From assembly GCA_964023285.1 (NCBI GenBank), contig CAXIEN010000093.1, positions 2,375,739 to 2,439,738 of the forward strand: 64,000 bases of DNA, read 5' to 3'. Positions within the stretch are counted from its first letter, which is position 1. The number at the start of each line of letters is the position of its first letter. This stretch comes from Larinioides sclopetarius. Lineage: Eukaryota. The notes below the pieces were generated by a model. That model saw only the letters and a list, made by a program, of their open reading frames with translations, searched no databases and was not told where the DNA came from. A program made the position numbers and the translations under genes. Positions 22,155 through 58,988 of the stretch are shown one piece after another.

Positions 22155-22310
22155 ATTTATAATCTTTGCATCATGATGGGACTCATGTGTCTGAAAGCTT
22201 GTGAAGATTGCAAAATGAATGTGATTTGCGGCAACTATTCAAACAAATTTGAGCTTGATGAGGATGTTTCCTTTTGTCAGTCAATAAAGGATGCTTGTGC
22301 TCAGTATGAA
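22155..22310 (+). CDS. TROVE gene exon, C-terminal part of the vWA domain (IYNLCIMMGLMCLKACEDCKMNVICGNYSNKFELDEDVSFCQSIKDACAQYE).
   Basis: The acceptor is ttttttctccag and the donor is GAA|GTAAGC. The motif LCIMMGL...MNVICGNY matches the Ro60 motif LIVCGMTSNGF...MLDMCGFD, recalled from memory. The roughly 100-aa vWA core that should lie between the previous exon and this one was not found. Confidence 0.55.
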
Positions 22311-22403: not shown

Positions 22404-22942
22404 TTTACTTTCTTCTTTCCAATACTTTCTTCTATAAGAAGAAAGTATTAGAATCGAGAAAATTTTCGACCTCCGTTTTTTGATGGATTTACATGTTTTG
22501 GGAGGTCCTGAACACGATTCCACTATTTTTAGAAAATGTTTGTCTATGTGCTGTGTGTGAAACAAATTTTGTGGGCATGCTAGCGCAAAAACTATGTGAG
22601 AGAATTTCATGAAATTTTATATTTAGTTGTATTTTAACATAAATTGGTGCTGATTAGATTTTGCTGTAGATCGCTCAACAGGTGGCGCTACTATTCCGTT
22701 TTTTCACGATTTTTTGTATCCACTCTTCAACAAAAACTAATGGGGGAAATTTCATGAAATTTCATATTTAGTTTTGTCTTGACTAAATTAATGTTCTTAA
22801 AATTTTTGTGAAGTTCGCTTGACAGGTGGCGCTGCTATTTCAATTTTTTCATAAATTTTTCAATATTTGTTTTTAGTATATCTTGGTTTTAATCATATAA
22901 TTATATAGAAGAAAGTTTTGTGATGGCCACATCATACTAGTT
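22404..22942 (+). mobile_element. Family-1 repeat, copy b (intact, about 535 bp).
   Basis: Near-identical to the family-1 consensus, from the hairpin tactttcttctataagaagaaagta to the 3' end atatagaagaaagttttgtgatggccacatcatactag. Confidence 0.75.
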
Positions 22943-23253
22943 TTATTTGTTAGTTTAGCCTTGTCTCTAACTCTTTGTTCATATTCCAAGTCTAATATTA
23001 GTCTCATCATTATCTTCATGTATTTGCTATTTTCTTTAAAAAAAATTAAACTAATTTAGTGGCTGAATTTTAAATTTAAAAGGCTAAAATGCACATTTTA
23101 TCGATTTTTATAGAAGATCTTGATATTGTTTTGTAAACCAAGTATTTTTTTAGGTAGATAGTAGTTGATAATAAATTGATTATAAATTATACAGCTCTCT
23201 TACATAGTTTTACATGTTTTTATTTGCTGAATATTCATTCTTTTTTCCTTTAG

Positions 23254-25869: not shown

Positions 25870-27001
25870 AAAGTCACAAATCTGGAATCGTCAGGACTTC
25901 AGCAATTCCAGGATGTGGGATAATTTGGGATCTTGGATCATTTCGATAATAAGAAATGAATTTACCATCAAAAAACATATCTTCTATTTAATTTTTTTAA
26001 ACTTATTTTTTACTTGGCTTTTTATTTTTTAAATATAATTAATTTTATTTCTTACTCTTTTCAATGTTTTTGCAAAAGATTTAATTTAAAGTGAGTTATT
26101 TCATCAGTTTTGGCTTTTGATTAGGTTACTTTTGAGTGTATTCTCATTATGTCTGGTTCCAAAATAGTCTTTTCTCAAATCCTTTTATTGCTGTGTTCAA
26201 TACTTCCTCTAAGATGTTAATTGGCATTTTATCTTCCACTTGTGTTTCTTTTTTCGCTCTTTTCACTATCGGATACAGAGGTTTTCGAGTTTATCAACAT
26301 CATTCTGTGTTGGCAGCATTGTTGGGGCTTTATAATTGCAATGCAGTACATCAGCTTTGGCAATTTCTTGTCTTCTCGACTTAACTTTCTCTAGTAAGTC
26401 AAAAATTTCAGCCTTTTCTTTTGAGATCTGAAATCCTTTGGAATCAGTATCCATCCTTTCTTCGTCTTTATCGAATATGGTTGCCGGCCAAAAATTGTGT
26501 CAAACATTTTTCATCACCGTGTTTCTAATCCTGTTCCATGCTTTATCTGCCCTCCAGTCTTTGAATTGTCTCCCCTTTATTGAAAAAACTGAGCATTTCT
26601 TTAAGGAATTGTGGTTTTTAATGGTACTTTAATACCTGCCTTCTATATTCTATTCGTTTTGGGAAAATTTACGTTATCATTCAGTACAGAAGGGGAGCGT
26701 GAGTTGCGTGTGCATCTGATTTGTAAACATTTCTTACATTCTTGGACTAGTTTGTTTGGTGCTAGAAAGGAGAAAGTATTGTATCGTGATTTGTTACAAT
26801 AGACCCCCTCCTCATAATACCTTCGTTGTAGGCGTGGTTAATTCCTTTCCCTCTTCTGTTGGTTATAGCCGTTTCTTCTTACTCTGGGTGGTGATTAATT
26901 ATGTAAAAATAAGATTTTTTTCTCCGAAAGTTTACAAGAATGAAAAACTTCCGATTTTTGTAGCGTTCAGGATTTTGGACATCTGGATTTGCAATGTTGG
27001 A

Positions 27002-27003
<2 letters not shown>
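25870..27003 (+). mobile_element. Family-4, copy 2, inserted into composite element X. It is followed by a (TA)n microsatellite.
   Basis: Same structure as copy 1. It is flanked by the two halves of element X (25710..25860 and 27040..27690), which are contiguous in the other copy at 32450..33000. Confidence 0.55.

Positions 27004-27032
<29 letters not shown>
27004..27032. repeat. (TA)n microsatellite of about 14 units.
   Basis: tatatatatatatatatatatatatata, directly after family-4 copy 2. Confidence 0.9.
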
Positions 27033-27036
<4 letters not shown>

Positions 27037-30000
27037 CATATGTATATGGAATATCCAACTTAAAGGGGTGATGAAAATGACAGGGTGTGAAAAGAAAAAT
27101 TTTCACACCCAGTCATTCCACCCACTTGTTGGGAGGCTCTCATCATTTGATTTCCATTTGTTTTCACTCTTTTAGCTCTAATCCTTAAGAGAACAGAGGA
27201 GGTAATGTTCTTTTTCTTATATCAGCAGGCTGAATGCTTTACCCATGTTATCTTGAGAACATGATAACTTGAGTAACTTTGAATAGATTGCAGCAGGCAA
27301 GAGATATGTTGTAAGGACAATAAAAATCTCGGTCGATTACGTAGATTGGCTATCCAGCTCAAAAGGGTGAAAATAGTGGAGGGGATGAAAGTTTTCATTT
27401 TCTCACAATTTTTTAAAACTGAAAATAGAAAGAAAATTAAAATCCAGGCGAATTAGCACCTTATCATAATATGAACAACTTGTCCTTTTAAACTTTCTCA
27501 ATAGTTGCAATTGTTTAGAAGTTCTGACCTGAAATGTAATTCCTCTACCCTCTTCAAATTAAAATTGTTTTTCAACCTATGTATATAACACCTTGTTTTT
27601 AAGCTTTCGTTTTTTGCAGTCTCTTGCATTTTCTTTAATTCATGTAGTTCCAACCCTAATGAAAATAGAAATGAATTTTTTTAATCTTCTTTACTTAATA
27701 TAATAAAACTATTAAAAATAGAAAAAACATAAAGCATGGATTTGTAGGGAATTTTATGCTGTTTAATTTCCTGATTACAGTCAAACGTTACAAATACGGT
27801 CATCCAAAATCCAGAATGATCTCAAATTTTTATTCCGTAAATCCCCTAAAAAATTCTAACTTTTGTCTAACAAATCGGCATTAGAGACTGCAGAAAATGA
27901 TAGTAATCACCAGGGAAGGTAAAGGATTTTACTATGTTGTACAACAATATGCGACGAAAGTATTGAGGAGTATTGTAAAGCATCGTAAGATTACAATACC
28001 TTCTATTCCCTAGCATACAAAATGGCTTAGTCCAGTCTGTAAGGGATGTTAACAAATAAGATGTGCATACAATTTCTTCTTTCTTTCTAGCTCACAAAGA
28101 GGATATTCCCATAATGAATGGAATATTTTAGAATTTTATGGTTGTCCTAAATTCTGAACTATCCCTTGCAAATGTTGAATTGCTCTTATCTGAGTCGATA
28201 TATTTTTTCTTGATAAAAGATTCCCACATTTTATTTAACTTTTCAATTTATATTTTAAAATCTTTTCTGGTTTGTACCTTTCATTGTCCAGTATGCCAAA
28301 ACATGCTTTGACCTGCTGCAGGCAGTGGATCAAAAAGAAAACAGGTGATTCTGTGAATCAAGGACAAGTCAAATCTTATCCAAAATTTGGAAAATCTTTG
28401 AACCAACTCACTTTAAATTAAATGTTTTATAAAAATGTTAAATTTAATAAGAAATAATATTAATTATGTTTATAAATAAAAAACAAGTAATAAAATAAGT
28501 TTTTAAAAATTAAATTGAATTCTCTATATTTTATGATGTTGAATTCATTTCTTAATATCGAAATGATCTAAGATTCGGAATTATCCAGAATCACCGAAGT
28601 TTCACTGATGCAGGATTTGTGATGTTCGACTGTATATTAAATTTGCAGAGTAAATATTTTTCTATATATTAAATGAATTTAAAAGGGACATGAAGTTCAG
28701 AATGTTAGTAAGCAGTGAGACTCAGTTATGTTGGAAACTATTAAATCTGGAAGAAAAATAAAAGCATATGTTTGTAGGAAATTTCACCCTTTTTAATTTG
28801 TTAAATAAATTATAATTTGGAAACTTAGTGATATTTGATATATTCAAGAAAAAAAAAGGAGTACCAGAACCTTGTACTTAAAGTAAGTTCATCAAAAGCC
28901 CCCTCACAAACTGTTTTTATAATTTCAAAACTATATTATTATTTTTTTTTTACAAATTCTTAATTTACTGGACTTTTAATGACTTTTTTTCTGCTTCCTC
29001 TTTCTTCAACCATAAACATCACTGTATAATGAAGTACTAGAATAGTTATCCTGCAGGGGAAGATAACTGTAATGTGCCTACCTATCTGGAAACCTGGAAA
29101 AGTTGGGGAACTTTTTGGGTCTGGAAATGTCATTGAATTTTTTGGTAAATACCTAACAAAACTTATAAAATGAAGAAATTCAATTAAAATTTTTTTATTT
29201 TCCTTTTTTCTCTTAAAAATTTGTTTAAAAATTCCACTGAAATTATTATTATTATTATTTTTTACAACTTGAAAGACTGCTAGAAGAAAGTTTGGTTAAG
29301 CCATTTCTCCATACCACTTTTTGTGCACTACAACACATTCTATTCAGGCTTTCCATAGCTTGGGAAAACTCCCCTAAGTCATAATCTATATTGTTCTCCC
29401 TTTTTTCCTTGCAGCAACAACTTGACAGTATGGAAGAGTTGCTTCTTTAAATGACAGTGAGAAACTGTTTAGTTTATATTTACCTATTGTAGATAAACTG
29501 CTTCTTAGAAAAGGAAAAACTAGTGTGCATAGTATATTGGTTCAATTTTTGCATACAAAGTTATTCTTCGAGTATTGCTATAATGGTTGTTAATTTGTTT
29601 TTGTATGTCTGATATAAATGGAATCTGTTTTGGTAAAATATTTTGCTTTCTTTAATTATTTTTTAACAAATAAGTTATAGCTTAGGATATAATGTTTGTT
29701 TTATATAAGCCATATTATTTTCCCTATATTACTTGAACTAAATACTTTTTCGTTGTAATATCATATATTTCCATATCTTAAATGATTTGCTTGGGATCGA
29801 AATTTCATTTTCTTAGGTCTCTTATATTTTAAAACATATTTAATTTTACTCTGGTATAGCTTTATTTGAAAAAGATATTTTCTGATTGAAAATATCTTTC
29901 TTTCAGGGTGATGGCAAAACCGGGAAATTGGGAATTTCAGGGAAATCAGGGAATTTTATAGATCTGAAAAGTCAGGAAAATTCATAAAACCATATAAAAA

Positions 30001-32449: not shown

Positions 32450-33000
32450 TGTTTTAGGTAGATTCCTTATAGGAAAACCTACCTTTTACAATGGTTCCCT
32501 TCAATCGGCTACCGGAAAATTTTTGCCGATCTTCAGTGATCAATGACTTCCAGAACCCCAAACTACCCTTTGTTAAAAATTTTTAAAAATAATAGGTAAC
32601 GCTTTTTCCCTAGCTTTCTTGTGAACATGATAATTCGAGTATTTTTCATTTAAATTTAGCCAGCCTTGGATATGAAGAAAGGACAGTGAAAATCTCGGTC
32701 AAGTTCATAGATGGGTCATCCAGCCTAAAGGGGTGGAAATGGGGGATTGGCATTTTTATTTTCCCATAATTCATTTACAATTGAAAATTGGAAGAAAATT
32801 AAAATTAGGTGTATTAGCTTTTTATCGTAACAAACAATTTTTGTATTTAAACTTTTTCTCTAGTTACAGTTGTTTGGAAGTTATGAGTTAAAATGTGATT
32901 TTCCCTCCCCCATAGCTTAAAATTCCTTTCAACCTACACATGTTACCTTCCTTGGAAAGCTATTGTCATTTGCAGTCTTTTCCATTTATTTTCATTCTTG
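32450..33000 (+). repeat. Composite repeat X, contiguous copy. A tandem partial second copy follows at 33040..33380.
   Basis: 32460..32570 matches 25715..25830 (gtagattccttataggaaaa(c/t)ctacct...). 32590..33000 matches 27170..27690 (..cttgtgaacatgataattcgagta.., ..gtgaaaatctcggtc.., ..ttgcaattgtttagaagtt..). A short fragment also occurs at 41690..41840. Confidence 0.5.
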
Positions 33001-35670: not shown

Positions 35671-37745
35671 TGCTCTTCACCTCACACATTCCGCAAACAT
35701 CAATAAATTACACGCTCGACAGAGACCCTATTGAGAGTTGCTTCTTAGACAATACCGCGAAAGAGCAGAAGCCTGTGAAATACTTAATGACGTAAAGTAA
35801 TTACGTGAAAAAGTTTGCCAGTGGCTTATCACCAAGGAAAACAGGAGCCCCCCCCCACGCAATGCAGTCATAAAAATGCGTAATGCTAGAAGCCGCCGGG
35901 AGCACTTGGCACTGGTAGCGAATACGTAGAAAAAGAGTGGTCAGTGGCTTTTGTAAAATCAATACAGACGTATTGGGGGTCTTCCTTGATGATGCCACCC
36001 TAATCGAAATTAGAGGTAGTGTGAGTGATCTCTCATGATGGGAAATTGACCACTGACGGAACCCCAACATCGCTTTTTTCTGAATTCAAGATTGTTAACA
36101 AATTACCGATAGAAAGATTCTAAGCCCCCCCCTTGCCACGGAGCATCATTGTTGTTCAAGAATAAGGGACTTCGTTCTTCAGTGGCAAGATAAGATAAGA
36201 ACTGCCTCATTATAGTGTGAACAATCCAATATTCATTTAGCGCAGTGCAGTGATAAATCTACAGCGAATATATGATGTTGCAGTCATGTTTCTAGTATCT
36301 TTTCTGACTGAAAAAGTTTCTTTGCCTTAAAAAATAATAAAGGGGACGAAAACAGTCGAACAAAACATTGGAGGGCATTCACTTAATAAAAAAATTGAAA
36401 GCATTATTTAGATTGTAGTTCGTTGATAACTTTTTGGAATGAAAAATGTATCATTTGTAGACAAAACCCTGATCGTTTAGATTCCCTTAGAGTGCAAGTG
36501 GAATTCACGCTACTGCAATGTAGATATAGTTTTACATTTACTTGTATCCAGCTAGAATTTTCCTATAAGTTGCACTATGTATTTGGCCTTGCAATTTTGA
36601 AAGAAAATTTACGCTATGTCTTGCAAATGCACAATAAAAAATTATTTACTGCAAACAATCGTGTTTACTGTAATTTTAATAGTATTAACTTCAAATTTTA
36701 ATATAACACTCCTGTAGCACATTGCCAAGTATTCTGTAAGTCTTGCATTATTTTATAGAAAATTTTGCATGTTATAAAGCAAAAAAAAGCATGTTGGAAA
36801 ATTTCAGAGTTTTTAAGCAAATCTTTTTATCCTTCAGAATATTCCTACTATTTTTTACGAATGTATATGTAAGCAGCGTACTTTTTGATCGAAACCATTG
36901 ATGAAGTTTGTAAATCATAATCAGCTTTCTAGCAGCCCAGATTTTTTTTCTTCATCATTAATTTCTATTCGGTTCTGTAAATGTCATTGTAACAGAATCC
37001 TTTCTGATTGAGAGTTAAAGCCTCTTCTTTATATTGTTACAAAACTTCCGTTTGGTGTGTATATGGTGAAGACAGTCAAGCAAGAAGGTAACAGAGAATA
37101 ACACTTTATTCTCGAAAATTTCCGAAAAAACGAGGCGCAGATAATAAGAAAAAGAGCACTTGCACAGAGAAACAGTATAAGCAGATAGCAAATCACTAAA
37201 AATAACAGAAATAGCAGGGGAAAAAACTGTCAGCGTGAAACGGCTGAAAAACTTGCATTGAACTAGTCAACAAAACACTCATAATGGAGCAACGATTACT
37301 CACAATCGAGTAACATTCAACCTTCGCGATCCAAGCGCTGCTTATATGACTTCTCCAGATAGACTGCGATGTCACGAATTACGTCACATAGATTTTTCAT
37401 GAAATTTCTCTATCTCCCCTTCTAACTGAAAAATCGAGAAAATTCCAGCACATTTGAGATCCTAAAAAAGTACCGTCGCCAAGCTCATATGGTCAATAGG
37501 AACATTATTATAGTATTCCAATACCAACTCCTGTAAAACTTTCTTTCCAACGAAAAGAGTTCCACCGTTGGGAAATTACTTTCAATGTTCGTAACAATAT
37601 GATCGGAATTCTAGGAAAATCCTTTCAGGAGATATTTAAAAAAATGTGAAATTCAAAAGTGTTCATATGATTCTTGGCTCCCTCTTATACTTTTGATTAG
37701 TTATATGTATTATATTTGAAAGCCATTATTTTACGATTTGCATTT

Positions 37746-38287
37746 TTACTTTCTTCTTTCTATAAGAAGAAAGTATTGGAATCGCGAAAATTTTCGACCT
37801 CCGTTTTTTGATAGATCTACACGTTTTGGGGGCTCCTGAACACGATTTCACTATTTTTAGAAAATGTCTGTCTGTCCTTCTGTCTGTCTGTGTGGTGTAT
37901 GTAACCGAAATTTTGTGGGCGCGCTAGCGCAAAAACTACTTGACAGAATTTTATGAAATTTGATATTTAGTTGTATTTTAACATAAATTGGTGCTGATTA
38001 GATTTTGGAGTAGATCGCTCAACAGGTGGCGCTGCTATTCCGCTTTTTTCACGTTTTTACATACCCATTCTACATCAAAAACTATTGGAGAAATTTCATG
38101 AAATTTTATATTTAGTTTTGTCTTGACTTAAATTATTGTTGATAAAATTTTTGTGTAGATCGCTCGACAGGTGGCGCTGCTATTACAACTTTTTCATAAT
38201 TTTTTCAATACTTGTTTTTAGTATATCTCGGCTTCAATCATATAATTATATAGAAGAAAGTTTTGTGATGGGCACATCATACTAGTT
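37746..38287 (+). mobile_element. Family-1 repeat, copy c (intact).
   Basis: Same termini and the same two internal subrepeats as copy b. Confidence 0.75.
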
Positions 38288-40387
38288 TTTCCTAACAAAA
38301 CGTTTTTGAGGAAAGGAGCGATGGACTGATAAGAGTTGACATTGTTCATTCAAGATCGAAAATTTAGAAAAAGTTTTCATGGTAAAATTCGTTATGGTTT
38401 ATAAATATAAGTTGATTAGTTATGACCTTATTCATCCTTTTTAACTAAATAAGTTCTTTTTATTAAATGTAAGTAAAAAAAAGAGTTTATTAAAAACAAT
38501 TTAGACGTTTTTCCTATTTAATATAAAATCTAAATGTTCGGACACTGTTATGTCCAACTCATCGCGATGGGCACAAAAGCCGAAAGAAATAACTATTTTT
38601 TAAATTTTTTATGTTATCAAGTGAGAAATATTTCTGTTTGGACAAAAATGAAAAAGATATAGGGAAGCAAAGGAATTTTGATTTCTTAATCTATTTTATG
38701 TAGAACACATGTAATGTTATTTAATCTGACACTATTACTATCCATAAACTAATATTTTTCAAATCAAATTTTTTTATAATTTTATGGAATTTAACAAAGA
38801 TAAAATATGCTGAATATCCAGGCATACCCCGACAATCATAGTTAAGATTAAATATATTGAATATCCAGGGATACTTATAAATAAAATTTATAATTTAAAT
38901 TGCAGTTCGTCGATATCAGCTTTCTTTGAAACGAGATAGATCAAGACTATTTTCGCTTTTTCTTACCCCTTAATTACCATCATGACCGTATCTTCATTGT
39001 AAAAAGAGAAAAGAAAGTTCCAGGGCAGTCATTTTAGTCTTTCAGGAGAAATTTTAAAAAATGTGAAAATCCGAAGGTTTCCAGTAGGGTTGTTACGCTT
39101 AACATGTTTAAAACACAGCATATAAAACATTGTTTAAAACACCTTTATTATTTTGTAAATATTTCTTCCAACAACAGTAATGTAGCACTACAATACTACA
39201 TTACTGTTTGTTTTTAAAAAATGAAAAAAAAAATTATTCCCCTCCCCCTTTTTTATTAAAAGTATAATTTGACTTTATTTTAAAATATTCATATCCAAAA
39301 ATAACAATCAATTTTCATTGCTATTTTGCTTAATATTTTCTTTCAATAACTTATTTTAATTCTTTTAATAAATAATTTATTTTAATAATTATCTTGATGC
39401 AATTACATGCTGCTGGTTTACGAAAAATGTTTTCTAGTTTCAGCTTTGTACAAAACAAAACTAGAAATCGGTTAGGTGTTGATAAGGCTGAAAGACTTGT
39501 AACTGTTCTTAAATCACTTAATAATGAAATGTGTTTGTATTTTGTATGCAATAAATGGCTAATTATTAATTAAAATTAAGCATTTATTATTTAGATTTTT
39601 TCCTGTTTTTAAAAAAAAATAAAATAAAGAAAGTGTTTTTATTTATTTTCGCGTACTTTAATCGAAATTGTGTTGTTCATGGGAGAGAAAAAAAACCGTT
39701 TAAAAAAAGTTTTTTGTTTTTTACCAACCCTGGTACCAGATACTTTTGATCAGAGGATAAAGCATAGAATTAAAAGCCTTAGTTAAAATATGTTATACTT
39801 TGTATCATCTTCACAGTTTTTTAAAAGGGGGCCTCAAAATAATTGCGCCTTGTGTTTAATCTTTTCAAAACCCGCCACATGCTGATTGTGTAATAAAACT
39901 GAACTGTAATCTCAAAAAAGTAAAAACCGCGAAATGGGAAGAAGGGTGGGAGGAGTCATTCTGAGAAAATCAGGTCCGGAATATACGTTTTGGAATCGGG
40001 AGGGGAGGCGTCACAGCTTAGGGGTTAAGATACTAGCTTCAGATAGGGTTACCTGACGTATGGCTATCTACATTGGTGACTGCTGCTTGATAATATTTTC
40101 ACCCTTATGGCGAGATGTTGGAAAATAAAAGGATTTTTTTTCCTCTTTGACATATGTACGGGTTTTTAATTTTTATCATTTTTCCAAAGCTTAAGTTTGG
40201 GGAGGATCGCTAATATTTGGAAATATACGGTATTTAGAAAGGGAAAAGAGACTGAAACTAAGAGCTCTAGTGAAAGAAATAGATTTCTTAAAACAAAATA
40301 AAATGTTCCTCCAAAATAACACATAAGCCAAAGAAAATGAAGAAGCAAGGGATTGACCTAATGAGGTTGAAAATTCAAAGAACATTG

Positions 40388-41430
40388 ATTTTTACTTTCT
40401 TCTATAAGAAGAAAGTATTGGAATCGCGAAAATATTCGACCTTCGTTTTTTGATGGATTTACACGTTTTTTTTACGGGGGGGGGTTCTGAACACGATTAA
40501 CCCTTTATGAACAACAATTTTTTTACCCAGTGAAAAAATTTTTTCCTTCCAAATCTCAATCAAGGGAGACCATAGGAAGCACACCTACCAATTTTTTAAA
40601 CTTTTTTGAAAAATTGATAAAAATGTACCAAATTCGGTACATTGGGCACACTTGGTGGCAACACTTACAGAACTGCTGACAGATACGAATGGGCCGAAAA
40701 CGTCACAATGGGCTATTGTGGAAAAACTCACTTAGCTACTGAAGCAAAATGATTCTGGAGGTATGTGCCGAATTCGGCACACCTGACGTTAAAGGGTTAA
40801 ACTATTTTTAGAAAATGTCTGTGTGCTGTGTGTAACACAAATATTGTGGCGCGCCAGCGCAAAAACTACTGGACAGAATTTCATGAAATTTCATAGTCAG
40901 TATTTTAATATAAATTGGTGCTGCTTAGATTTTGGCTTGAATCGCTCAACAGGTGGCGCTGCTATTCCGTTTTTTCACGATTTTTTGTATCCACTCTATC
41001 AAAAACTAATGGGAGACATTTCATGAAATTTATATTTAGTTTTGTCTTGACTTTAATCAATGTTCATAACACTTTTGTGCAGATCGCTTAACAGGTGTTC
41101 TGTGATTTCAATTTCAAATTTCTCATTTTTTTTCATAATTTTTTTCAATATTTGTTTTTAGTATATCTCCTTTTCGATGTTTTGAAAGTGCATAAAATGT
41201 AATACAAGAGGTGTACACTATATAAAGTTACTTTGATTCAATATGCATACATGTTAAAAGCATTTCTTTGATAAAACATAGTTTTAACGTCGCTGAAAAT
41301 ATAATAAATTTTATGCAGTTTATTAATGATTTTTGTTTTGAATAAAAATAAGCATTATTAATACGGATTCTAATGCATCTCAATTATATAGAAGAAAGTT
41401 TTGTGATGGTCACATCATACTAGTTTTCAT
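40388..41430 (+). mobile_element. Family-1 repeat, copy d. It is interrupted by the TTAA-MITE (40501..40796) and by a 215-bp insertion of unknown type (about 41171..41385).
   Basis: The family-1 5' hairpin is at 40388. The family-1 sequence is broken at gaacacgatt|...|actatttttagaaaatg and resumes after the MITE. The 3' end aattatatagaagaaagttttgtgatggtcacatcatactag is at 41385..41430. Confidence 0.7.
40501..40796 (+). mobile_element. TTAA-flanked MITE (piggyBac-type), copy 1, nested inside family-1 copy d.
   Basis: TTAA lies on both sides (40497..40500 and 40797..40800). The ends are CCCTTTATGAACAACAATTTTTTTACCC...GTTAAAGGG. Internal palindromes are gtgccgaattcggcac and taccgaattcggta. Confidence 0.65.
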
Positions 41431-41867
41431 TGTTGTTTATTTATTCGCATGAACTAAGGAAGCTAATTACTAATAAATACCTTGGATGTAAAAGATTTTT
41501 TCATCAATTTATTTATTCATATTTTTAAAAATTTTTGTTGTGTTAAATTTTTGATAACTTCTATGTTTTATAGTATACTTTTCTAATAACTGAATTTAAA
41601 AGAATAATATGCTTTATTTAAAAATGCGTGCAACAATTTGTTATTTTATTCAATTTAGAGGTCCTTATTTTTGGATATTTTAGTCCTTGAAAGTATTTGA
41701 TTTTTTCTTACCCTCCCTCCTAGAATTAAAATTGTATTTTAACCTATGTATGTTACTCTTTTTTTTAAGCTCTTGTTATTTGCAGTCTCTTAGATCTTCT
41801 TTAATTCTAGTAATTCCGACCATAATGAAAATTTAATATTATAATAGGCGAAGAGAAAACTTTGTAC

Positions 41868-41915
41868 CCTTTTTGCAATTCCAATACTTTCTTCTTATAG
41901 AAGAAAGTAAAAATT
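41868..41915. repeat. Solo family-1 terminal hairpin (ccaatactttcttcttatagaagaaagta..ttgg).
   Basis: A palindromic copy of the family-1 5' terminus with no element body attached. Confidence 0.4.
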
Positions 41916-42744
41916 GGAATGTTATTGAGTCAGCCTGTTTTTTACACATGATCAATTGTATGTCGCAGCAAGTAGAATTTAATCATTCGATGATTCGAGA
42001 TTTTTATATTTTCGAATTACAACGGTGAAAGGCATTTAGCAAACTGAAAGAGCTTTTACAATAAACATCGTCTACACAGAAGTTTTGAATCATTAAATTC
42101 ATTTTCAAACTATTTTATGTTCCCCTTTTTTGTTTCAATAAAAAATATATATAAAAGAATACGAAGCTCACACACATATTCTTTATTTCATTTTTGGTAT
42201 TAATTTATTTAAATTTTATGTAAATTGAAGAATATAGGTAAATTAACCGTGCAGCCTTGATGAAACCTCCCAGTATAGCAACAAGAAGAATCCAAGAAAA
42301 TGGCATAAAACGTGTTATTGTTTTTTAAATATGGCTTATTCCAATCTATACTTTATTTTTCCTATCTTTTGTATTTTTCAAATAACTCGTACAAGCTTTC
42401 TGCTGACGTATTAGAGCAAAATAAAAAAATATATGTATGCTATGATTGTAGAGGTATACTTCTCTATAACCTCAATAACGTTCAAATATTTTAAATAGTA
42501 CCACTACAACGACACTACGTGCTTTAGTAGAGCATGTAAAGTTCTTTTCTGATTAACAATCAAAAGGAATATACCTTTGCCTTCTGGCTTGCCAACGGGA
42601 ATTTTTTGTTCTTTATTGTTATTAAAAATATTGTGTGTTGCTTGTTTTTCATTCTCAAAATAATGTTGTGTATATATAGTATTGTTTATTTACTTTTGAA
42701 AAGGGTAAAATGAATACTGTTAAATAATTTGGACAGTTTGAAGC

Positions 42745-47900: not shown

Positions 47901-49289
47901 GTGAGTTTTAGAAGCTGTTTCTCATCTCAAAAAAGACAACCGACTATATTAAGGTCAAGCATGCTTGTCACCAAATGGTAGTTTGTCATACAATAGTTCT
48001 TTAAATGTTTATATTTGATGTTTTAACATATAAAAATTCAAAATGGAAAATATTTTGGATTATAACAAAATAAATTATTAATTATTAGTTGTATTGGGAA
48101 TCACAATATACACATGAATAAATTTTAACTCTTTCTCAGCTTTTAGCATTGTTAATAATAATAAAAAATTTTAAATTTACAAATAAAGTTTTTGAAGTAT
48201 ACATATAAGATTTGAAAGAGATTAATTGTTCTTTTTATTGCTTGAACTATTTATTAAATATTCCATCATTCACTATAGTTTGTTTGTGATGCATTACATA
48301 TTTGTAATAAATCGCAACTTTGTTTGAATCTAACAAATATAAGTTCTGACCGATTCTCTAGATTTTATTATTGTTAACACATGTGCAAGAATCATGTTGC
48401 TGATGTTTATTATTATCTCAACAGGAGGTAGATTAATATATTGCAAACTATTCTGCGTGCATTATATTAGTGCTGAAGAGTTTTTGAAAATGATATTATC
48501 CATGGTAGATCAATGATTCAAGCTTGAATTTTGCCGCAAGATCATTTAAAAACTGTTTTATTCTGCTAGTTTCAAATGTAATTGACAAAATTTAAAATTA
48601 CTAGTAAGATTTCACTTATAATACATAGTTTATTTCCATTTAAAATTAATTATATAATGCAAAGTTTATGTCATCTACAATAATTTGATGTGCTCTGTGT
48701 ACCTCAAGTTATAAAAAAAGGTAAATATTAATTTAGTTTTAACATTTACTTTGTAGAATTTTAATCATACAAATTGTGAATCTAACTTCACCAAAAATGT
48801 TCGTGATAATTATACTTGCATATGATAATTGTGCAGATGGAAGTTAAAAAACAAATAATTCCTTCTTATTATCTTTTAGAACATCCTTATAATTATAGTT
48901 TTCTCTCCTTCTCAGTAACTTTTCAACTATACCAAAAGGCAAAAGTATAAACAGGATGTGTTATATATATATAAACTAATTTGGTGTGACCATCTAAAAT
49001 TTTTTATATAATTGAGATGCTTTCGAGTCTATAGATAACACTGATTTTTATCCAAAACATAAAACATTATTAAACTGCATCAGACTTTTTTCTTATATTT
49101 TAAGCAATGCTGTTGCTATGCTTTATGATAGCAACAGAGAAATGCTTATAGCAAAAATTGTGGAAATGTATAGCAGAGCCCCCTGTTAAGATACACGCAT
49201 GCAAACTGAATCAAAATAACTTCGTATACTTTACATCTTATGAATTAAATGTTATGCAATTTCAAAGCATAGAAACCGAGATATACTAA

Positions 49290-49757
49290 TCACAAAAGCT
49301 GCAACGGAATAGCAACGCCACCTGTTGAGTGATTTACGACAAACTCTCATTAATCAGCATTAGTTATTGCTAAGGTAAAACTAAATGTAAAATTTCATGA
49401 AGTTCTGCCCAGTAGTTTTTCGTCTAGAGTGGTCACAAAATTTCACAAAAATTGTGGGAGAAACAAAATATAAAAAGCGGAATAGCAACGCCACCTCTCC
49501 AGCTATCTCCATCAAAATCTAATCAGTATTAAGTTATGTTAAGGTGCAAGCAAATATAAAATTTCATGAAATTCCGTCAAGTCCTTTTTGCGCTACCGCG
49601 GCCACAAGTTTTGTGACACTCACAGACATTTTCCAAAAATAGTCAAATAATGTTCAGAACTTCACAAAACGTATAAATCCATAAAAAAAAACGGAAGTCA
49701 AAAATTATCAAGATTTCCCAATATTTTCTTCTCATATATATCTTATAAGAAAGTAAA
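49290..49757 (-). mobile_element. Family-1 repeat, copy f. Reverse orientation, more diverged, and it lacks the canonical 3' tail.
   Basis: The reverse complement shows the hairpin end actttcttataagatatatatgagaag and both subrepeats (caacaggtggcgttgctattccg twice). Confidence 0.55.
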
Positions 49758-49919
49758 AATTCTCGCTTTCATATATTTTCGTGAAAGAAGTTCTTTCACA
49801 TCATTGTCTATCTTTTATTTATGACTAATAGACAAAGCTGGTCATTTATTATTTTAGAAGATTTTCTACTCTGCAGAGAGTTCTGCATCAAGGCTTTTTA
49901 AATTGTAAATACGGAAGTA

Positions 49920-50384: not shown

Positions 50385-50708
50385 TTATGCAATAATCACA
50401 ATATTATAAAATAATATGAATGCGGTGCTCAAGAAGAAATGGAGTAATATCCCAAATGATGCTTTTGCAGATGTACCACTTGAGAAGCAATCGAGATCTG
50501 TTTTAAATACTGTTATAATTGATCTATTGTTCATATTAACACATATAGCTTCACGTAAGTCATGTAGATAAGTTTCTTCGCATATCATTTCTTCACACCG
50601 AGTTTCATATTCATATTCTTTTATCCATTCCCATATCCAAGAAAGTTCACAGTTACAATTTAGTTGATTTCCAGTTAGCTTCAAATGCTTGAGGTGCTTT
50701 TCTGGTAC
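50385..50708 (-). CDS. LRR protein gene, terminal exon. Encodes the LRRCT cysteine cap and a C-terminal GPI-signal-like hydrophobic tail, ending at a stop codon.
   Basis: A minus-strand acceptor tttttttttctttttacacag precedes GTACCAGAAAAG. The translation VPEKHLKHLKLTGNQLNCNCELSWIWEWIKEYEYETRCEE...C contains the NxLxCxC...W LRRCT pattern. It then reads FSSGTSAKAS plus SFGILLHFFLSTAFILFYNIVIIA and a stop, which is a small-residue omega region followed by a hydrophobic C-terminus with no cytoplasmic tail. The exon is phase 0, consistent with both candidate exon-2 donors. Confidence 0.65.
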   Translation of the reverse strand, partial: VPEKHLKHLKLTGNQLNCNCELSWIWEWIKEYEYETRCEEMICEETYLHDLREAICVNMNNRSIITVFKTDLDCFSSGTSAKASFGILLHFFLSTAFILFYNIVIIA

Positions 50709-52109
50709 CTGTGTAAAAAGAAAAAAAAATTATGAGTAGTTATAAATTTAGTAAAAACAGAGTATATCAAACTTATTGGAAGTCAACTGGCTTGTTTAAT
50801 GGCATAACATAATAAACGTGTTTAGTATAATAAACGAACAATCTGTCATATGCATGCTGTTTTCATATTTCAGAGATAAATATAACATGGCACATTTATA
50901 ATACTGTTTGGTTCTTGCATGCCTTAAGAATTGTGGAAGCCCTTTCACAACATGGCATCATGGAACTTGATTTTCACCATAATTAAGTTTATGATTAAGA
51001 GAAATCTCTGCTCAACATAAATCATGATAAAGGCTGTCTAGAACACAAAATATCCTATTAAAAGCTGTTAACTCACTAAGAGAAGATTTCCATGATATGA
51101 CTGCAGAAGGTATCGAAAGAACTACTCTTTAAAAAAAGATATTGACTTGTTGAATTTGGTAAAAATTATCTTTAGAATGCTAAGTGTGATTTAAGAGATG
51201 AGAGTTTGGCTGAAAATAAAGTTAAGCACCTAATTATAAAAATGTAAAGAAAGCTATGAATTTATCACAGCTGCTGTGTATTTCTGTATGATAATATACT
51301 ACTTAAAAAAAATTACAAACTATGCAAAAGAACTTCATAGTTTTTTAGTCCTGTTTTCAAAATTTATATACAAAAAAATAATCTGCACATTTGGGCAGGC
51401 AGTTTAAAATAAAATTTTTTAAAACAATAGGTACATAATAAAAGTGCATAATAAACGTAAAATAAGGAAATGCTGCTAAAGATACAAAAGAAAAGATATC
51501 TTGTCTAAAGAAAAATGTTTTTCTTTTAATGATTTTCAATAGTGATGACAAAGATGTCATTATTTTACCATTTTAATACACTTCTAGTTAAAATTTCTTT
51601 GATAAAGATATTTTTCTTCATTATGAAAATAACATGTGTTTAGTTATTGGATCCCCCCATTTTTTGAACTAGCTAATTGTTTGCACAATACAAATTCACA
51701 TAACATGCTATTTTTTACTATCCTCATTATCGTGATTCATGCTTAGTTATAGTTATGTAAATAATTATGTATTAATATTAAAATAAATGTCACCATCAGA
51801 TCATAGATCCTATATTAAGTTGTAAAGATAATTAAAAAATGAATATATCTTCTTGATATAGTTTTGTTTAGATTTCACGGTATAAGGAAGTATAAAATCC
51901 ATTATTACTAAGCTCATTTTTATCCCATACAAAAGAGCTCCTAGTAAGTTTTCTAACTTAATTAGCATGCTATATTTTAATGAATATATGCACGAAGCTT
52001 CAGCTGTTTTCTGAAATAATTTTTTTTCTAATATTAATTCATTGAATCGTTTATCTGTTTATTTATATTTAGAATTTTATTTACATATCGTTTGAAATAA
52101 AAAAATTAA

Positions 52110-53214
52110 GGATGTAACGAATATTCGGCAATTATTCGGTATTCGGCTTTTTGCCAAATATTTGGCTGCCGAATACTAAGCAAATATTTAGCTGAATATT
52201 TTCAAGATGGTAATTTTTTGAAAGTATTAAATAATAAAAACATTTCAGAATTATATATTTCATTTCATTCATTTTTTCTTAAAAAAATCTAGCATTTACT
52301 CAGTTTTAAGTTTACATATATATATAATTGACATATTTTAACATATATTTAAAATTATGAAATATAGTATATAGCACATAAATATATCTAATAATTTTAT
52401 ATGTTTCTTATGACTGTAAAGCCTACAATTATATTAACCAAGAGATATTTTGAGGAGTGCTAAATATATATTCAGTGAAATAAAATCAAGGTATTTTTAA
52501 ATATGTATATTTAACAATGATTATATTGGAGAATTACATTTCAATATATTGATTTACAAAAAAATTCCTAACATTCAGTTTTAAAGGGGAGAGTTAGCAT
52601 TATTAAGTTAAATAACTTTTAGTCCTGTAACTGTAGATGTGGTTTATAAACCATATATATAATAACGTACTCGAAGTTGAAAGGTCAAAGTAAAGGAAAG
52701 ATGTTTGACTGAGTGGTAAATAGAAGTGAAGAAGAATTCGAATATGTTAAAGGAAATGACTTAAAATTTTGACTTGGAGAAAAGCGATTTTTCTATATTT
52801 AAAGGAAAAGGCACGAAGGATGACAAACAAATTTTTATTTTGTTTAGATTAATAATTTTTCTAAAAAAATTTTAAAATCTTAAATATATAATCTAATTAA
52901 TGTATAGGTAAAATTATGCTATTATAATTTATTTAGATTCGGTGAAGTCACATTGTCTTATTCTTATAATTAAAGTGTTTAAAATATATTTAAAAAATAC
53001 ATCAAGGTGCTAATATTTAATAAAACCAATAAAAAAATGAAAAATAACTTTATTAATCATTGATTTTTTATTTAAAATTTCAGGAATATTTCATTTGCCA
53101 TAAAAAAAGGGAAGTGTTTTTAAAAAATAGATATTCGGCCTGGTTTTTGGCCGAATATTCGGTATTCGATTATTCGCGTGCACGCGCGGCCCCAAATCAC
53201 TATTCGTTACATCC
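52110..53214. mobile_element. A 1.1-kb non-autonomous TIR element (TIR GGATGTAACGAATATTCGG), copy 1. It sits in LRR gene intron 2, about 45 bp from the donor.
   Basis: Perfect 14-bp inverted ends ggatgtaacgaata / tattcgttacatcc. Subterminal ccgaatattcgg palindromic motifs are repeated at both ends. There is no transposase ORF. Confidence 0.6.
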
Positions 53215-53258
53215 CTATAAAAAATTATCAAAATATTTGTAGTAAAAATCTACATTAC

Positions 53259-54050
53259 CTCTCTTTCTGTTGTGTATAACTTTTCAAGTGTCTGCAACTT
53301 GTTGTTTATAAATGCTGTCGTAAAATTCTTTACTTCTTTCATATTTTCAAAAACTTTTTGGGGAAATCTAGTGATGTTTGAATTTCGAATATTCAAGTTT
53401 AGAGTATGACTTCGAATGGCAGAAAAAACTGACTCATCCAAATATCTCAAATTATCACCTTCTAAGATGATAGATTTTAATGATTTAGGAAGGTCTCCAT
53501 TGAAAATTCCATCCAGTCCATTTTCTTGAACGTGCAAATGTATTTCATGTATTCCTTGGTTTCCATGAAACATTTGAGATATGTTGGTGCTTCTTCCTGT
53601 GTAAGTATCAAGTTCAATCTTTTTTAATGCTGTTAATTGATGGAAAGTATCTTGATCAATTTCTTGTAATTTTAAATTTTTTATGAACAGTTCCTGCAAT
53701 CTTTCCATGTTCGTAAAACTGTTGTTTGATAGTTTTTGAATTGGATTCTTTTGCAAATATAAGCATTTTAATTGTTGCAAGTTTGACCATATGTTGTTAT
53801 GTGTATTCAACAGTAGATTATTAGATAGATCCAAAATCTGAATTTTCTTCAGTTGTTCCAGCGTTTCTTGTTCCACTGTTTGTATGCCGTTGGAACTCAA
53901 GTTCAACATTAAAATGTTGCACGACGACAGCATTGGGATTATTTTCAAGCTCGTGTTTGCTAAATTGAGTTCCTCAAGGCTATTTGGTAAGTTATTAGCC
54001 ACCCATGCTGGAAGTTCCTTTATTGAATTGTGAGATAGATCCAGAGTCAT
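53259..54050 (-). CDS. LRR protein gene, exon 2 (further LRRs). The donor is ambiguous: GTAATG at 53258, or alternatively GTAAAG at 53333.
   Basis: A minus-strand acceptor ttttttttctcgttttcag lies immediately before ATGACTCTGGAT at 54050, and the frame is phase-compatible with exon 1. The ORF 53250..54050 is entirely LRR (LDLSHNSIKELP..., LDLSNNLLL...). Two candidate phase-0 donors lie near the ORF end. Confidence 0.7.
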
Positions 54051-54878
54051 CTGAAAACGAGAAAAAAAATCAATCTATGGAAATAATTCATAATTTTAAA
54101 AATAAATCTATGAAATCTATGGGAGTGCCTATTTTTGTATTTAGTCAATATTTAATTTTTACTGAAATTGAAGAAAAAGGGAGGGAGTGGCGGAATTCTC
54201 CATTAAGGAAAGAAAACTGACTCTGTCAAGGCAATTTTTACGCAAAGCAAAACTCACGTTTTTCTATCGAAAAACAGCTTACTTTATTTATAAATCTGAA
54301 TTGCACTTAGAAAACAAAAAAACTATTTTTAAATTAACGAGTCTAAATATTTCAAACAATTATAATTTTTTTTATATTAATAGTTTCTGAGTTATTTATT
54401 GCAAGTAATTTAAAGATTAAAAATTGCAATAAAGTCTGAATAAAAAATCATCTTAAATAATTGCTTTAAACTAACTTGGAAATTAAAGAGAGGTTCAGAC
54501 CTGCCAAGATTGTAATACCTCAACTTAATCATTCCATTTTATTGATTGTTAATTTAACAAGCGGTTTTATATTTTAATTTGTTTAAAGAGAGCAAATTAG
54601 TATGTTTTTAATACCGATAGGGTAATTTAGTTTTATTTGAGACAGTATTTTACGATAATCAGAGTTCTTAAAAAATCCTACACTGTGTTATTTTTAAATC
54701 CCGTCCTAATAAACTATATCCAATTCTTAAAGTTTGAATTTGTTCTATAGTTTTCATCCTTTGTTAATTTGATAACTATTTTGCTATGATTCCCTTCTCC
54801 CAAAGGTTCAGTGTTTTTTTTTTCTTCAAGTTTAGATATATTTGTGAGGCTGCTAAAATTGAAATCAACTATACTTAC

Positions 54879-57473
54879 TAGATTTGGTAGTTGCAATTCT
54901 TCCGCTGAGCTAGGTAGAATCAGTCTGTTACGGGAAAGACTCAGGTATCGTAAACTTTGCAGTGATGTAATGCTGCTGAAATTAAGCGATTCTATTTCAT
55001 TTCCAGTTAAATCAAGGTACTGCAATGTATCTTTGATATGGAATATGGAATCTTCAGGGAATTCTTCTAAGTTATTGAATGATAAATCTAGTTGTTCGAT
55101 TGTTGTAGCTTTAAAAATATCTCCTAGTATCTGTTCCATCTCATTGTAAGCCAATGAAAGTATTCTTAATTGCTTTTGTCTCTCAAATAAATTTTCTGGT
55201 AGATTGTTTAAGTTATTTTTTGATAAATCTAATATTTGTATAGATCGTAGACCTTTAAATTCCTCTTCCTCTATTATTTCAATCTCGTTATTTGAAAGGA
55301 TTAGAGTCTGTAGATGAGCCAGATTTGTAAATGCTTGGGTAGTTAAATTTACCAATTTATTATGGCTTAAATCTAGGACTGTAAGTGACAGCCTTATTGG
55401 ATCTAAGTAGTTGGTATCCAAATATGATATATTGTTATAGCTAAAATTGAGATGCTTTATGTTGCTTGAAGTATGAATAACTGTGTAATTTCCTGTTAAA
55501 TTCTGAATGTTGTTATGATCTACATCTATTCTTAAAGTGGACAGTCTTCCTACTTGGTTAAAAGCTTCTAAGTTGAAAGAAGATAGCTCATTATATCCCA
55601 AATTTATTAGTTGAATGTTTGGCAAATTTTGGAATGCTTCATTATCTATAGTTTCAATGGAATTCCCTTCTAGACGAATAATCATTACGGAGTCTAAATC
55701 GAGAAAAGCGGATTTTTGTATGGTCTCAATTAAGTTATCATTCAGTTGCAAATAGATCAGATTTCTCAAATTTCGAAAGATGTGGGATTTTAATACGCTA
55801 ATTTTGTTAAATGCTATTTTCAGATAAGCAAGGTTTGGATTATGCATATCATTTACTATATTCATATCTAGATCCTTCAATTCATTATGATTTAAATTTA
55901 AATACCTTAAATTTTGCGACGACGAAAACGAATTTTGTGGCAAATATTGGATACGATTGCTACTCGCATCTAAATACTCCAACTTTGATAGAGAATTTAA
56001 TGCTTTGTATGGGAATATTGATATCTTTAAAGCATTATGCAAAACAAGTTTTTCTAATGAATGCTTTACATCTCTAAAAGTGGTATTTCCGATTTTTGTT
56101 ATGGCATTGTGGGATAAATCTAACGATTTTAATCCGCTCAATCTGTGAAATGCTCCATTTTCAATAACTTTAATCGAACTTTTTGTCAGGGATAGTTTTT
56201 CCATGGAAGGTCCGACGTTTTGCAAATATTCCGAGTTGATAACTGATGTTTGTTTATTGAATGATAACTCTCTTATGTTTGGTAAATATTTCATGCTTTC
56301 TTGTGACAAGCCGTTCATCTTCGACCCAGAAATATCGAGGTATTTTAAAGGATTTCCGCAGTACTTAATGTCTTCCGGTGTAACTTCCTTTATAGAATTT
56401 CCAGCCAGCGATAATTTAGTTAATTTCGTCAATGGTAAAATAGGGAATTCTTTTATGTTATTATAGCTTAAATCTAAAACTTGTAATGAATGCGTTGAAC
56501 TAAAAAATGCATTTTTTGTTATTTCTGATATTGAACAGTAAGGAATGTAAACTTCAGTTGTATTGGCTGTCAGGAAAGTGTCATTTACTGTTGTAAGTGG
56601 ATTGCCTTTCAGAAAGATACGATTTACTTGATTGAAAAGTCTGAAACTTTCTGCTGTTAATTCTTTTATAAGATTGTGTTCGAGATGCAGCTCATCTAAA
56701 TATATGCGACTTCTTATTTCCCTTCCTTCAGATATAGTAGAAATCAAATTTTCGTTTAAGTTTACGATTTTAATGTTTTTAAAACTAGCCAATGCATTCA
56801 ATGGTATTTGCTGAAGCTGATTACCCATTAGATTTATATGCTTTAAATTATTCAATCCTCCATGAAAAGTTATATCGTCAATTGAAATTATAGAATTGTA
56901 TGCCAGATTCAAAAATTCTAAGGATATCATATTCCGAAATGCGTCACTTTGAACCTGCATTAGAGCGTTTTGAGATAAATCTAGAACCTTTAGACTTGTA
57001 CCCAAATTGCGAAAATCATCTGTGTGTAAGAAAGCAATTTTGTTATCCGCCAAATTTAAATTGCTTAGTTTCTCTAAATTCTGCATTGCTTCTTTTGGTA
57101 TTCGTATTAAGTTATTGTGTCTTAAATCTAGAATAGATAATGTTTTCTCGAGTCCTGCCAAAGCATTGGGTGGTAAATCTGTGAGCAGATTATTGTTAAT
57201 CTGAAGTTTCCAGAGTCCGGTTCCATTTAAACTATTATCCTCTAGAAAACGCAATTTGTTATCTTTAAGACTCATAATGTAAATTGCAGAATTATTGATT
57301 TGAGATGGAACAGTCATTAATGGTATATTATGGCAGCATACAGAACCCAAATCTGGACCTCCATTGGAGCATGTGCATAAAGGGTTGAATGAGCATGGCC
57401 GATGTTGTTCTTTCAATCGGGAATCCACATTTGTGAGGAAAAGTAGGAGACAGAGTTTATCAAAGAATTTCAT
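54879..57473 (-). CDS. LRR protein gene, exon 1 (865 codons). Encodes an N-terminal signal peptide, an LRRNT cysteine cap and a long run of leucine-rich repeats. The architecture is chaoptin-like.
   Basis: The ORF 54714..57473 starts with M and a hydrophobic leader (MKFFDKLCLLLFLTNV). The motif CSFNPLCTCSNGGPDLGSVCC is LRRNT-like. It is followed by about 35 repeats of LxxLxLxxNxI/L. An in-frame GTAAGT donor (plus-strand acttac at about 54873-54878) ends the exon in phase 0 after the codon for L in ...ELQLPNL. The exon length of 2595 nt is a multiple of 3, consistent with the ORF frame. Confidence 0.8.
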
Positions 57474-57544
57474 CTGGAAAAAAAAAGATTATTCAACGTT
57501 CTGGTAAAAATATATGCAACGATATATATAATTTTAAATATAAG

Positions 57545-58013
57545 TATACTTTTTTATTTTCTTCTATAAGAAGAAAGTATTGGAATCGTGAAAATTTTCG
57601 AACTCCGTCTTTTGATGGATTTACGCATTTCGGGGGGCCCTGAATACGAATTCACTATCTTTTGGAAAATGTCTGTGTACTGTGTGTAACACGCATTTTG
57701 TAGGCGCGCTAGCGCAAAAATTTCTGGACAGAATTTTATGAAATTTCATATTTAGTTGTATTTTAGCATAAATTGATTCCGTTTTTTCACGATTTTTTGT
57801 ATTCACTCTACATCAAAAACTAATGGGAGAAATTTCATGTTTAGTTTTGTCTTGACTTAAATTAATGTTCATAAAAGTTTTGTGCAGATCGCTTGACAGG
57901 TGGCGCTGCTATTTAAATTTTTTGAAAATTTTTTCAATATTTGTTTTTAGTATATCTCGGTTTCAATCATATAATTATATAAAAGAAAGTTTTGTGATGG
58001 CCATATCATACTA
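57545..58013 (+). mobile_element. Family-1 repeat, copy e. It lies 70..540 bp upstream of the LRR gene ATG.
   Basis: The 5' hairpin is ttttcttctataagaagaaagtattggaatcgtg. The 3' end is atataattatataaaagaaagttttgtgatggccatatcatactag. Confidence 0.7.
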
Positions 58014-58988
58014 GTCTTTTTAATTAATATTTACGAAATTTACATGTAATATTTTCCTCTAGTTTTCATATATTTTCTTTGTTTGAAAAAAAATATTTTA
58101 AAATTTTGTTGAGCGAATTCGTGGGTAGATTCAAATTATTTTTTGTAAAAAAATTGGAAAAGTTTTATTTAATAATTTGGATAAATTAAGCGTCAAAATT
58201 ATAGTTATTTTTAATGGATAAATTGCAAAAGTGTTCGAGTTGAAAAATATCAATAACTAGCCTTTTCTTGTTGAGAAAAAATTCGATATTTTATGGTTGT
58301 TTATATAGCAGCTGTCATTTCTTGTCTGGAAAATTTGCATATGTATAGATTTTCTGTGATGAAACAATATTAAACTTCATGCAATAAAACGAGTTTTCTC
58401 AAACTTTATTTAATAATTCTCCCTTATATTATATAAATGTGCAAAAAATGTTTTGTTTCATTATTAATATAAATAAATGTAGTTAGTTATAAATTTTTAC
58501 ATGTTTTGATGAAAATTTTTAAATGAAAGCATTTCTCTTTTAAAAGATTATTTTAAGAATCTAGAAAGTAGTATTGGCTTTATATGATCGCGATTATATA
58601 TATATAAAGAAGCCTTCTAATATTGCCATTTTTATACAATTAACTGCCAATGAGAGGTTAGTAAGTTAAAAGCATAAAAAAAGATCGATTGTCTTAATCA
58701 TAATTCGTAATATTGATGAAAATGAAGAAATCTTTTTCAAACAACGTCAAACATTTTGTAAATAATTAAATTATAAAAAAATTATGTTCATATACAATAT
58801 GCGATGCAGAATTTAAGTACAAAGTAACAATATTTTATTTTAAAAATATTTTTTTTTCTGAAATTCATTTTTTTATTTATTTATAAAATAATCATAAGAT
58901 ATATTTTTTATGTTTAATTTTCCGAACTAAATGTATAGACTTAGGCACGATATGTGAGGAATAATAATAATAAACGAATAAGTTCTTG

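Follow-up and report, generated by a model that had tools for sequence, protein, structure and literature searches.

The terminal sequences, target-site duplications and empty-site comparisons presented here indicated that a 296-bp, non-coding element in this stretch of spider DNA was very likely a non-autonomous DNA transposon (a MITE) of the piggyBac superfamily. Two copies were identified in the 64-kb window, which is the whole stretch of DNA that was analyzed, and paralogous empty sites indicated that both copies were insertions that duplicated four bases now reading TTAA. The original prediction of a piggyBac-type MITE was thus supported by TTAA duplications at two insertions with empty sites, by CCCT…AGGG termini, by the small size of the element and by its lack of coding capacity, all of which were features of the DNA. 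Beyond that prediction, the analysis added the empty-site proof of both insertions, the true end of the element and the 8-bp deletion in copy 2, the exclusion of Kolobok, and the piggyBac-like placement of the palindromes.

Copy 1 was the complete 296-bp element, CCCTTTA…TAAAGGG, and was located at 40501 to 40796 on the plus strand, as determined from the sequence, from BLAST and from the colinear HSPs that were obtained after deleting 40501-40800. Copy 2 was 294 bp long and was located on the minus strand (59749 to 59456); the alignment and the empty site indicated that its CCCTTTA tip was intact at 59749 and that its other end lacked the last 8 bp (TTAAAGGG). Two copies with about 95% identity had been predicted at these coordinates; both were present, and 283 of the 292 aligned bases were identical (96.9%, counting substitutions only; K2P 0.032). 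When gaps were included, the identity was 93.8% over 306 columns (BLAST E=1e-133), and there were two internal indels, one of 8 bp and one of 2 bp. Homology between the copies ended exactly at the TTAA/CCC junction on the CCC side.

The flanks were also as predicted, because TTAA was found at four of four. Specifically, the duplication to the left of copy 1 was at 40497 to 40500 (plus strand), where family-1 paralogs read GATT[CC/TC]ACT, which is equal in length to GA-TTAA-ACT, and the duplication to the right was read directly from the sequence at 40797 to 40800 (plus strand). In the case of copy 2, the duplication on the side of the CCC tip was at 59750 to 59753, based on the sequence and the empty site, and the duplication on the truncated side was at 59452 to 59455, based on gapless colinearity with a paralog (TTGA, 52685-52688) after the removal of 59456-59753. 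The predicted CCC/GGG ends, including …AAAGGG, were found as the tips CCCTTTA (40501-40507, plus strand) and TAAAGGG (40790-40796, plus strand) in an inverted-repeat search. The CCCTTTA arm lacked a GC-rich palindrome and was treated as right-end-like, and the palindrome-bearing TAAAGGG arm was treated as left-end-like.

The perfect inverted repeat was 7 bp long by itself and 11 bp long with TTAA, and the 7-bp TIR was under the 12 to 19 bp that is typical of piggyBac. A window-wide scan for further TTAA-CC…GG-TTAA structures, in which the TIR had to be 7 bp or longer, returned only copy 1. Mononucleotide shuffles yielded 0.1 such structures per window, and therefore the TIR by itself was weak evidence. 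The element showed the generic features of a MITE: a length of 296 bp, no coding sequence, TIRs with a target-site duplication, and two near-identical copies in the window.

Both insertions were examined by comparing their hosts with paralogs. Copy 1 was located in a copy of the family-1 TIR element, copy d (40378-41926, plus strand; TIRs 40378-40432 and 41926-41870), which was delimited via BLAST after in silico removal of the insert. When 40501-40800 (296 + 4 bp) was removed, single colinear BLAST HSPs crossed the junction to other family-1 copies. The five family-1 paralogs read GAACACGATT[CC/TC]ACTATTTT at this site ([YC] and then ACTATTT), and the length was that of GAACACGA-TTAA-ACTATTTT. 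One of these aligned empty sites was ACGATTCCACTAT at 22514 to 22526 (plus strand), and the others were at 8389-8401, 37842-37854, 57646-57658 and 49639-49653 (minus strand). Copy 2 was located in a different TIR element (58988-60312, plus strand), with ends GGAATGTAACGAAT… and a length of about 1027 bp minus the insertion, as determined by alignment with a paralog. This 70%-identical paralog supplied the empty site, CCTTTAC-TTTGA-CCTTTCAAC, at 52676 to 52696 (minus strand). Removal of 59456-59753 (294 bp and one TTAA) produced a gapless alignment with the paralog at 52621-52740 (TTCCTTTTCTTTAAGCCTTCAAC versus TTCCTTTACTTTGACCTTTCAAC). In a comparison of junction models for copy 2, a target-site duplication with a deleted end scored 47, and the models that lacked the duplication or left the end undeleted scored 41 each, and both of these were gapped. 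The target sites in the paralogs read TTCC, TTTC or TTGA, and none read TTAA; thus, the TTAA state of the actual targets was inferred from the duplicated flanks. The proposed nesting, with copy 1 interrupting family-1 copy d and copy 2 inside a TIR element at the 5' flank of the LRR gene, was therefore borne out by empty sites in both cases.

The two host families also had features of their own. Family-1 was a TIR element of about 450 to 550 bp that was present in six copies with 64 to 83% identity (8298-8736, 22423-22957, 37742-38289, 40378-41926, 48973-49760 on the minus strand, and 57551-58018). Copy d was 1.5 kb long because it had gained at least one further insert in addition to the piggyBac MITE; part of that insert (41708-41832) was repeated at 27548-27666 and 32900-32998. 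At 40466-40487, copy d carried a T8 homopolymer followed by a G9 homopolymer (TTTTTTTTACGGGGGGGGG) where the other copies had TTTTGGGAGG; this expansion was due to local slippage or possibly to an assembly artefact. The second host, a TIR element of about 1 kb with ends GGAATGTAACGAAT…/CGAATATTCGGC-rich, was present as two 70%-identical copies, one upstream of chaoptin (58988-60312) and one in the intron between the last two chaoptin coding exons (about 52109-53164).

The TTAA duplications at two independent insertions, together with ends that read CCCTTT… and …AAAGGG, pointed to piggyBac. The hallmark termini of this superfamily are CC[C/T]T…/…A[G/A]GG (PMC2872659), CCCTTT fits the pattern of the first six TIR nucleotides, C[C/A/T][C/A/T][T/G/A][T/A/G][T/G/A], and the structural group SG1 has TIRs of 5 to 19 bp, a range that includes 7 bp (PMC5381638). 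In addition, the literature showed CCCTTT… tips on bona fide piggyBac elements and MITEs, namely coral AmiPB1-3, the CMITE families and lemur npiggy1. The longest ORFs in the MITE copies were 49 to 51 amino acids, and none was common to both copies. No match to the T. ni piggyBac transposase was found in the window by tblastn at E<1, using a query that had 99% identity to database entries. Such a MITE would be mobilized in trans, by cut-and-paste, by a piggyBac-like transposase whose gene lies elsewhere in the genome. The transposase core would bind the MITE tips, excision would be precise, and integration would occur at TTAA with duplication of TTAA.

A Tc1/mariner-type (Stowaway-like) MITE was also considered. 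Such an element would duplicate TA and have the ends ACCCTTTA…TAAAGGGT, and the T and A on the outside of each TTAA would be target bases that occur there by chance. This model predicts the same empty sites (GATTAAACT; CTTTAAGCC) with an element that is one base longer at each end; because TTAA is palindromic, the empty sites are equally compatible with the duplication of TTAA and with the duplication of TA by an element that has A…T ends. TA-duplicating MITEs are, moreover, the most abundant class of arthropod MITEs (PMC5199201). However, both targets were full TTAA sites, which under the TA model has a chance of about 0.016 given the base composition of the window (28.9% G+C). The tips also carried the piggyBac CCCT motif, the bases below the tips matched those of the piggyBac element AmiPB2, and a palindrome was positioned at the piggyBac CRD site, as described below. 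A TA-duplicating element was thus judged improbable.

According to the original prediction, copy 2 was 8 bp shorter at one end and the exact boundary was uncertain. The 8 bp were indeed missing, and the boundary was settled by the empty sites in favor of the longer end: the comparisons indicated that the element ended in …CCTGACGTTAAAGGG rather than in …CCTGACG and that copy 2 was end-deleted. The 3' end of the full element read …GACGTTAAAGGG. The empty sites for copy 1 had no space for eight extra target bases, and therefore the element ended in …CCTGACGTTAAAGGG. Homology in copy 2 extended to 59450 (…TTAAAG), because the flank happened to start with AG.

For the same reason, a full insertion at the copy 2 site would be expected to read …GACG-TTAAAG-GG-TTAAAG-AAAAGG, which contains a 6-bp direct repeat with its units 8 bp apart. 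The observed sequence of copy 2 was the exact result of losing one TTAAAG unit. Slippage or a microhomology deletion between TTAAAG(gg)TTAAAG would be the simplest route to the loss of TTAAAGGG, and the use of an internal TTAA as a pseudo-end was a less likely alternative to deletion. In a study by Elick (1997), as cited in PMC5381638, removal of one terminal G abolished piggyBac excision. Because copy 2 lacked the terminal 8 bp and piggyBac excision needs the terminal G, copy 2 should be immobile.

The converse arrangement, in which the true element was shorter and ended in …CCTGACG as in copy 2, and copy 1 carried eight bases of other origin, was highly improbable. It would account for the clean TTAA flank of copy 2 at …CCTGACG/TTAA, and the empty site fits that boundary. 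However, it leaves the eight extra bases at copy 1 without room in the family-1 empty sites, it yields an element that lacks terminal inverted repeats (CCCTTTATG versus CGTCAGGTG), and it requires eight extra bases to have made a perfect 7-bp TIR by chance (about 4^-7). The 6-bp direct repeat TTAAAG, by comparison, accounted for the loss in copy 2.

The 5'-CC…GG-3' termini of the element were also compared with those of Kolobok. In PMC5381638, PMC2872659 and PMC9587614, two superfamilies are TTAA-specific, piggyBac and Kolobok. Kolobok elements duplicate TTAA, as was seen at the two insertions, and they are present in arthropods, but their termini are 5'-RR…YY-3' (PMC9587614). Kolobok (T2-type) MITEs thus have the TTAA duplication in common with the spider MITE and differ from it in their ends (RR..YY versus CC..GG). 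Membership in this superfamily was very improbable, and Kolobok was excluded on the basis of the CC…GG ends.

The least probable idea, with only a negligible chance of being correct, was that the repeat did not move by cut-and-paste and was instead a retroposon such as a SINE, a segmental duplication, or a piece of a Helitron with its 3' hairpin. SINEs have a head of Pol III origin (tRNA, 5S or 7SL) and a tail at the 3' end, and their duplications vary in length; Helitrons insert between A and T, make no target duplication and have TC…CTRR ends. The GC-rich palindrome at 9 to 15 bp from one end superficially resembled a Helitron 3' hairpin, but a 4-bp duplication was present and the ends were CC…GG, and a Helitron was rejected on these grounds. 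The sequence folded better than its shuffles (z of about -3.8), but the fold z-score was equal on both strands, which would be expected of DNA palindromes and not of an RNA. In addition, there was no similarity to tRNA, 5S or 7SL, no Rfam family passed the threshold, and no structure resembling a tRNA was detected; Rfam (E-value mode) and ARAGORN searches of 40300-41000 yielded sub-threshold chance matches only. A SINE was rejected because there was no Rfam or tRNA match, no A-rich or 3' tail, and an identical 4-bp TTAA duplication at both insertions. The flanks of the copies were unrelated and came from two different older repeats. All of these non-cut-and-paste origins were contradicted by the empty sites and the termini.

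The piggyBac-type MITE carried three 18-bp, EcoRI-centered palindromes on the GGG arm and none on the CCC arm. In copy 1, the perfect palindrome P1 (TGTGCCGAATTCGGCACA) was at 40764 to 40781, which is bp 16 to 33 from the GGG tip; this palindrome is a putative transposase CRD-dimer site by comparison with bp 17 to 33 of T. ni piggyBac (PMC7351741). The degenerate palindrome P2 (TGGGCCGAAAACGTCACA) was at 40690 to 40707 (bp 90-107 from the GGG tip), and P3 (TGTACCAAATTCGGTACA), which had one mismatch in copy 1, was at 40624 to 40641 (bp 156-173). Motif scans located the copy 2 equivalents at 59463-59480 (P1, perfect), 59537-59554 (P2, three mismatches) and 59601-59618 (P3, perfect, TGTACCGAATTCGGTACA). 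All five matches to the motif TGTRCCGAATTCGGYACA in the window were inside the two copies, compared to 0.01 matches expected. Two EcoRI-centered palindromes had been predicted; one of these, GTGCCGAATTCGGCAC, was found in both copies, and the other, TACCGAATTCGGTA, was intact in copy 2 only. Copy 1 read TACCAAATTCGGTA in its place, with one mismatch, beside the 8-bp indel. A separate observation was that the CCC arm contained an A/T-rich imperfect palindrome at bp 13 to 43 from the tip (40513-40543 in copy 1, with an equivalent in copy 2). Its 14-nt arms were 86% complementary, and it may represent another type of end motif or may have arisen by chance in A/T-rich DNA.

The two copies of the MITE differed from each other by about 3%, compared to 11 to 36% for the hosts against their paralogs. 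Hence, the MITE insertions were much younger than the transposons that they interrupted, and the divergence values indicated that the MITE family was active well after both host families.

The setting of the insertions was defined by conserved genes. The largest ORF in the window (54714-57473, minus strand) was an exon of chaoptin, with 82% identity to Nephila pilipes chaoptin and 65% identity to that of Stegodyphus; no database protein reached 90% identity. This LRR gene had three coding exons on the minus strand (50391-50711, 53256-54050 and 54870-57476), and its protein was 70 to 82% identical to that of N. pilipes. The three coding exons and the flanking TROVE/Ro60 gene showed synteny with the N. 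pilipes locus, with 73 to 83% DNA identity. These matches identified the source of the DNA as a spider. Blocks at 18655-18755 and 22130-22231 had 81 to 83% DNA identity to the TROVE/Ro60 gene that adjoins chaoptin in N. pilipes; because these blocks aligned beside chaoptin, synteny was conserved. The distance from the last chaoptin exon to the nearer Ro60 block was about 28 kb and was filled with repeats, compared to about 7 kb in N. pilipes. Copy 1 was located in this interval, which was expanded by repeats and was bounded by the chaoptin and Ro60 exons aligned with N. pilipes. A simple TA-rich repeat at about 26880-27110 translated as IYIYIY… in two overlapping spurious ORFs.

The chaoptin start codon was preceded, at a distance of about 4.3 kb, by a non-coding block (61797-62006) that matched the beginning of the N. 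pilipes gene model with 82% DNA identity and was probably a 5' exon or promoter. Copy 2 was located between this conserved block and the start codon, about 2 kb from the latter, and thus it was in either the 5' flank or a 5'-UTR intron of chaoptin. No copy of the MITE was found in the syntenic chaoptin locus of N. pilipes (L001, 28.9 kb). Exact interior, tip and tip-to-tip patterns had no match in JGI metagenomes, prokaryotic genomes or IMG/VR, and copies represented by miscalled ORFs were found neither in two exact look-ups nor when six-frame pseudo-proteins were searched against 5.8 billion proteins. When the T. ni piggyBac transposase was used to search for an autonomous spider element, the named matches listed were insects and included no spider.

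The literature search found no piggyBac MITE from a spider. Because MITEs of the piggyBac type have been described in corals, insects, amphibians and mammals, their occurrence in a spider was expected and not surprising, and the element appeared to be an ordinary small transposon. It provides a cleanly delimited repeat family for spider genome annotation and, with about 3% divergence between copies, a young insertion marker. Together with the older elements that it interrupted, it also provides a relative chronology of transposon activity in the region.

The arrangement of the palindromes resembled that of two known systems. In the left end of T. ni piggyBac, a dimer of the transposase cysteine-rich domain binds a palindromic repeat at bp 17 to 33 (PMC5381638, PMC7351741), and in piggyBat the left end carries three imperfect palindromes and the right end carries none (PMC11707139). 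The spider MITE shared with T. ni piggyBac a palindromic repeat that starts about 16 to 17 bp from one tip, and it shared with piggyBat the restriction of three palindromes to a single end. In contrast, the palindrome sequence of the spider MITE was unrelated to that of either element, its spacing was 74 and 66 bp compared to 44 bp in piggyBat, and its other arm carried just the weak A/T-rich palindrome. Based on this geometry, we proposed that the GGG arm was the equivalent of the left end and that the palindromes were putative binding sites for the C-terminal domain of the cognate transposase. The two further palindromes on the GGG arm would then serve as extra binding sites. The three-palindrome arm is a concrete prediction of cognate transposase binding; it could help to find an autonomous partner and to judge whether that partner is active and usable as a tool.

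The tips of the spider MITE also resembled those of AmiPB2, an element from Acropora millepora (GQ281008). A literature string search showed that the two AmiPB2 tips were non-identical, CCCTTTAACGCCC and, when reverse-complemented, CCCTTTATGGACC. The same asymmetry was observed in the spider MITE (in AmiPB2, left tip CCCTTTAACG…, right tip CCCTTTATG.AC… when reverse-complemented); each AmiPB2 tip agreed with the corresponding spider tip at 11 of 13 positions, and AmiPB2 also had a perfect TIR of 7 bp. Past the shared CCCTTTA, 8 of 12 positions matched (P of about 0.003 to 0.01 before multiple testing). This comparison covered the tips alone, and the match was suggestive, not decisive; it may reflect chance or shared constraint. 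AmiPB2 differed from the spider MITE in that it was autonomous, was 2352 bp long, encoded a 543-amino-acid transposase and had a cnidarian host. A tentative and rather unlikely extension was that the MITE was a miniaturized form of a spider piggyBac that was recently active and belonged to the AmiPB2 lineage, and that its tips and the CRD-type palindrome at bp 16 to 33 were conserved between Cnidaria and Arthropoda or moved horizontally. If so, the three palindromes on one arm would represent a natural multiplication of putative transposase-binding sites. Such palindromic binding sites tune activity in piggyBac and piggyBat.

Among known elements, the closest parallels were with piggyBac-derived MITEs, such as the coral CMITE families, primate MER85/npiggy and the insect MITEs in iMITEdb. 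Like the spider MITE, these elements have a TTAA duplication, CCCT(T)… tips, a length of 100 to 400 bp and no ORF, and their multiple copies are nested within other repeats (PMC2872659, PMC2997546, PMC5199201). The spider MITE differed from them in its 7-bp perfect TIR and in the three 18-bp, EcoRI-centered palindromes on one arm.
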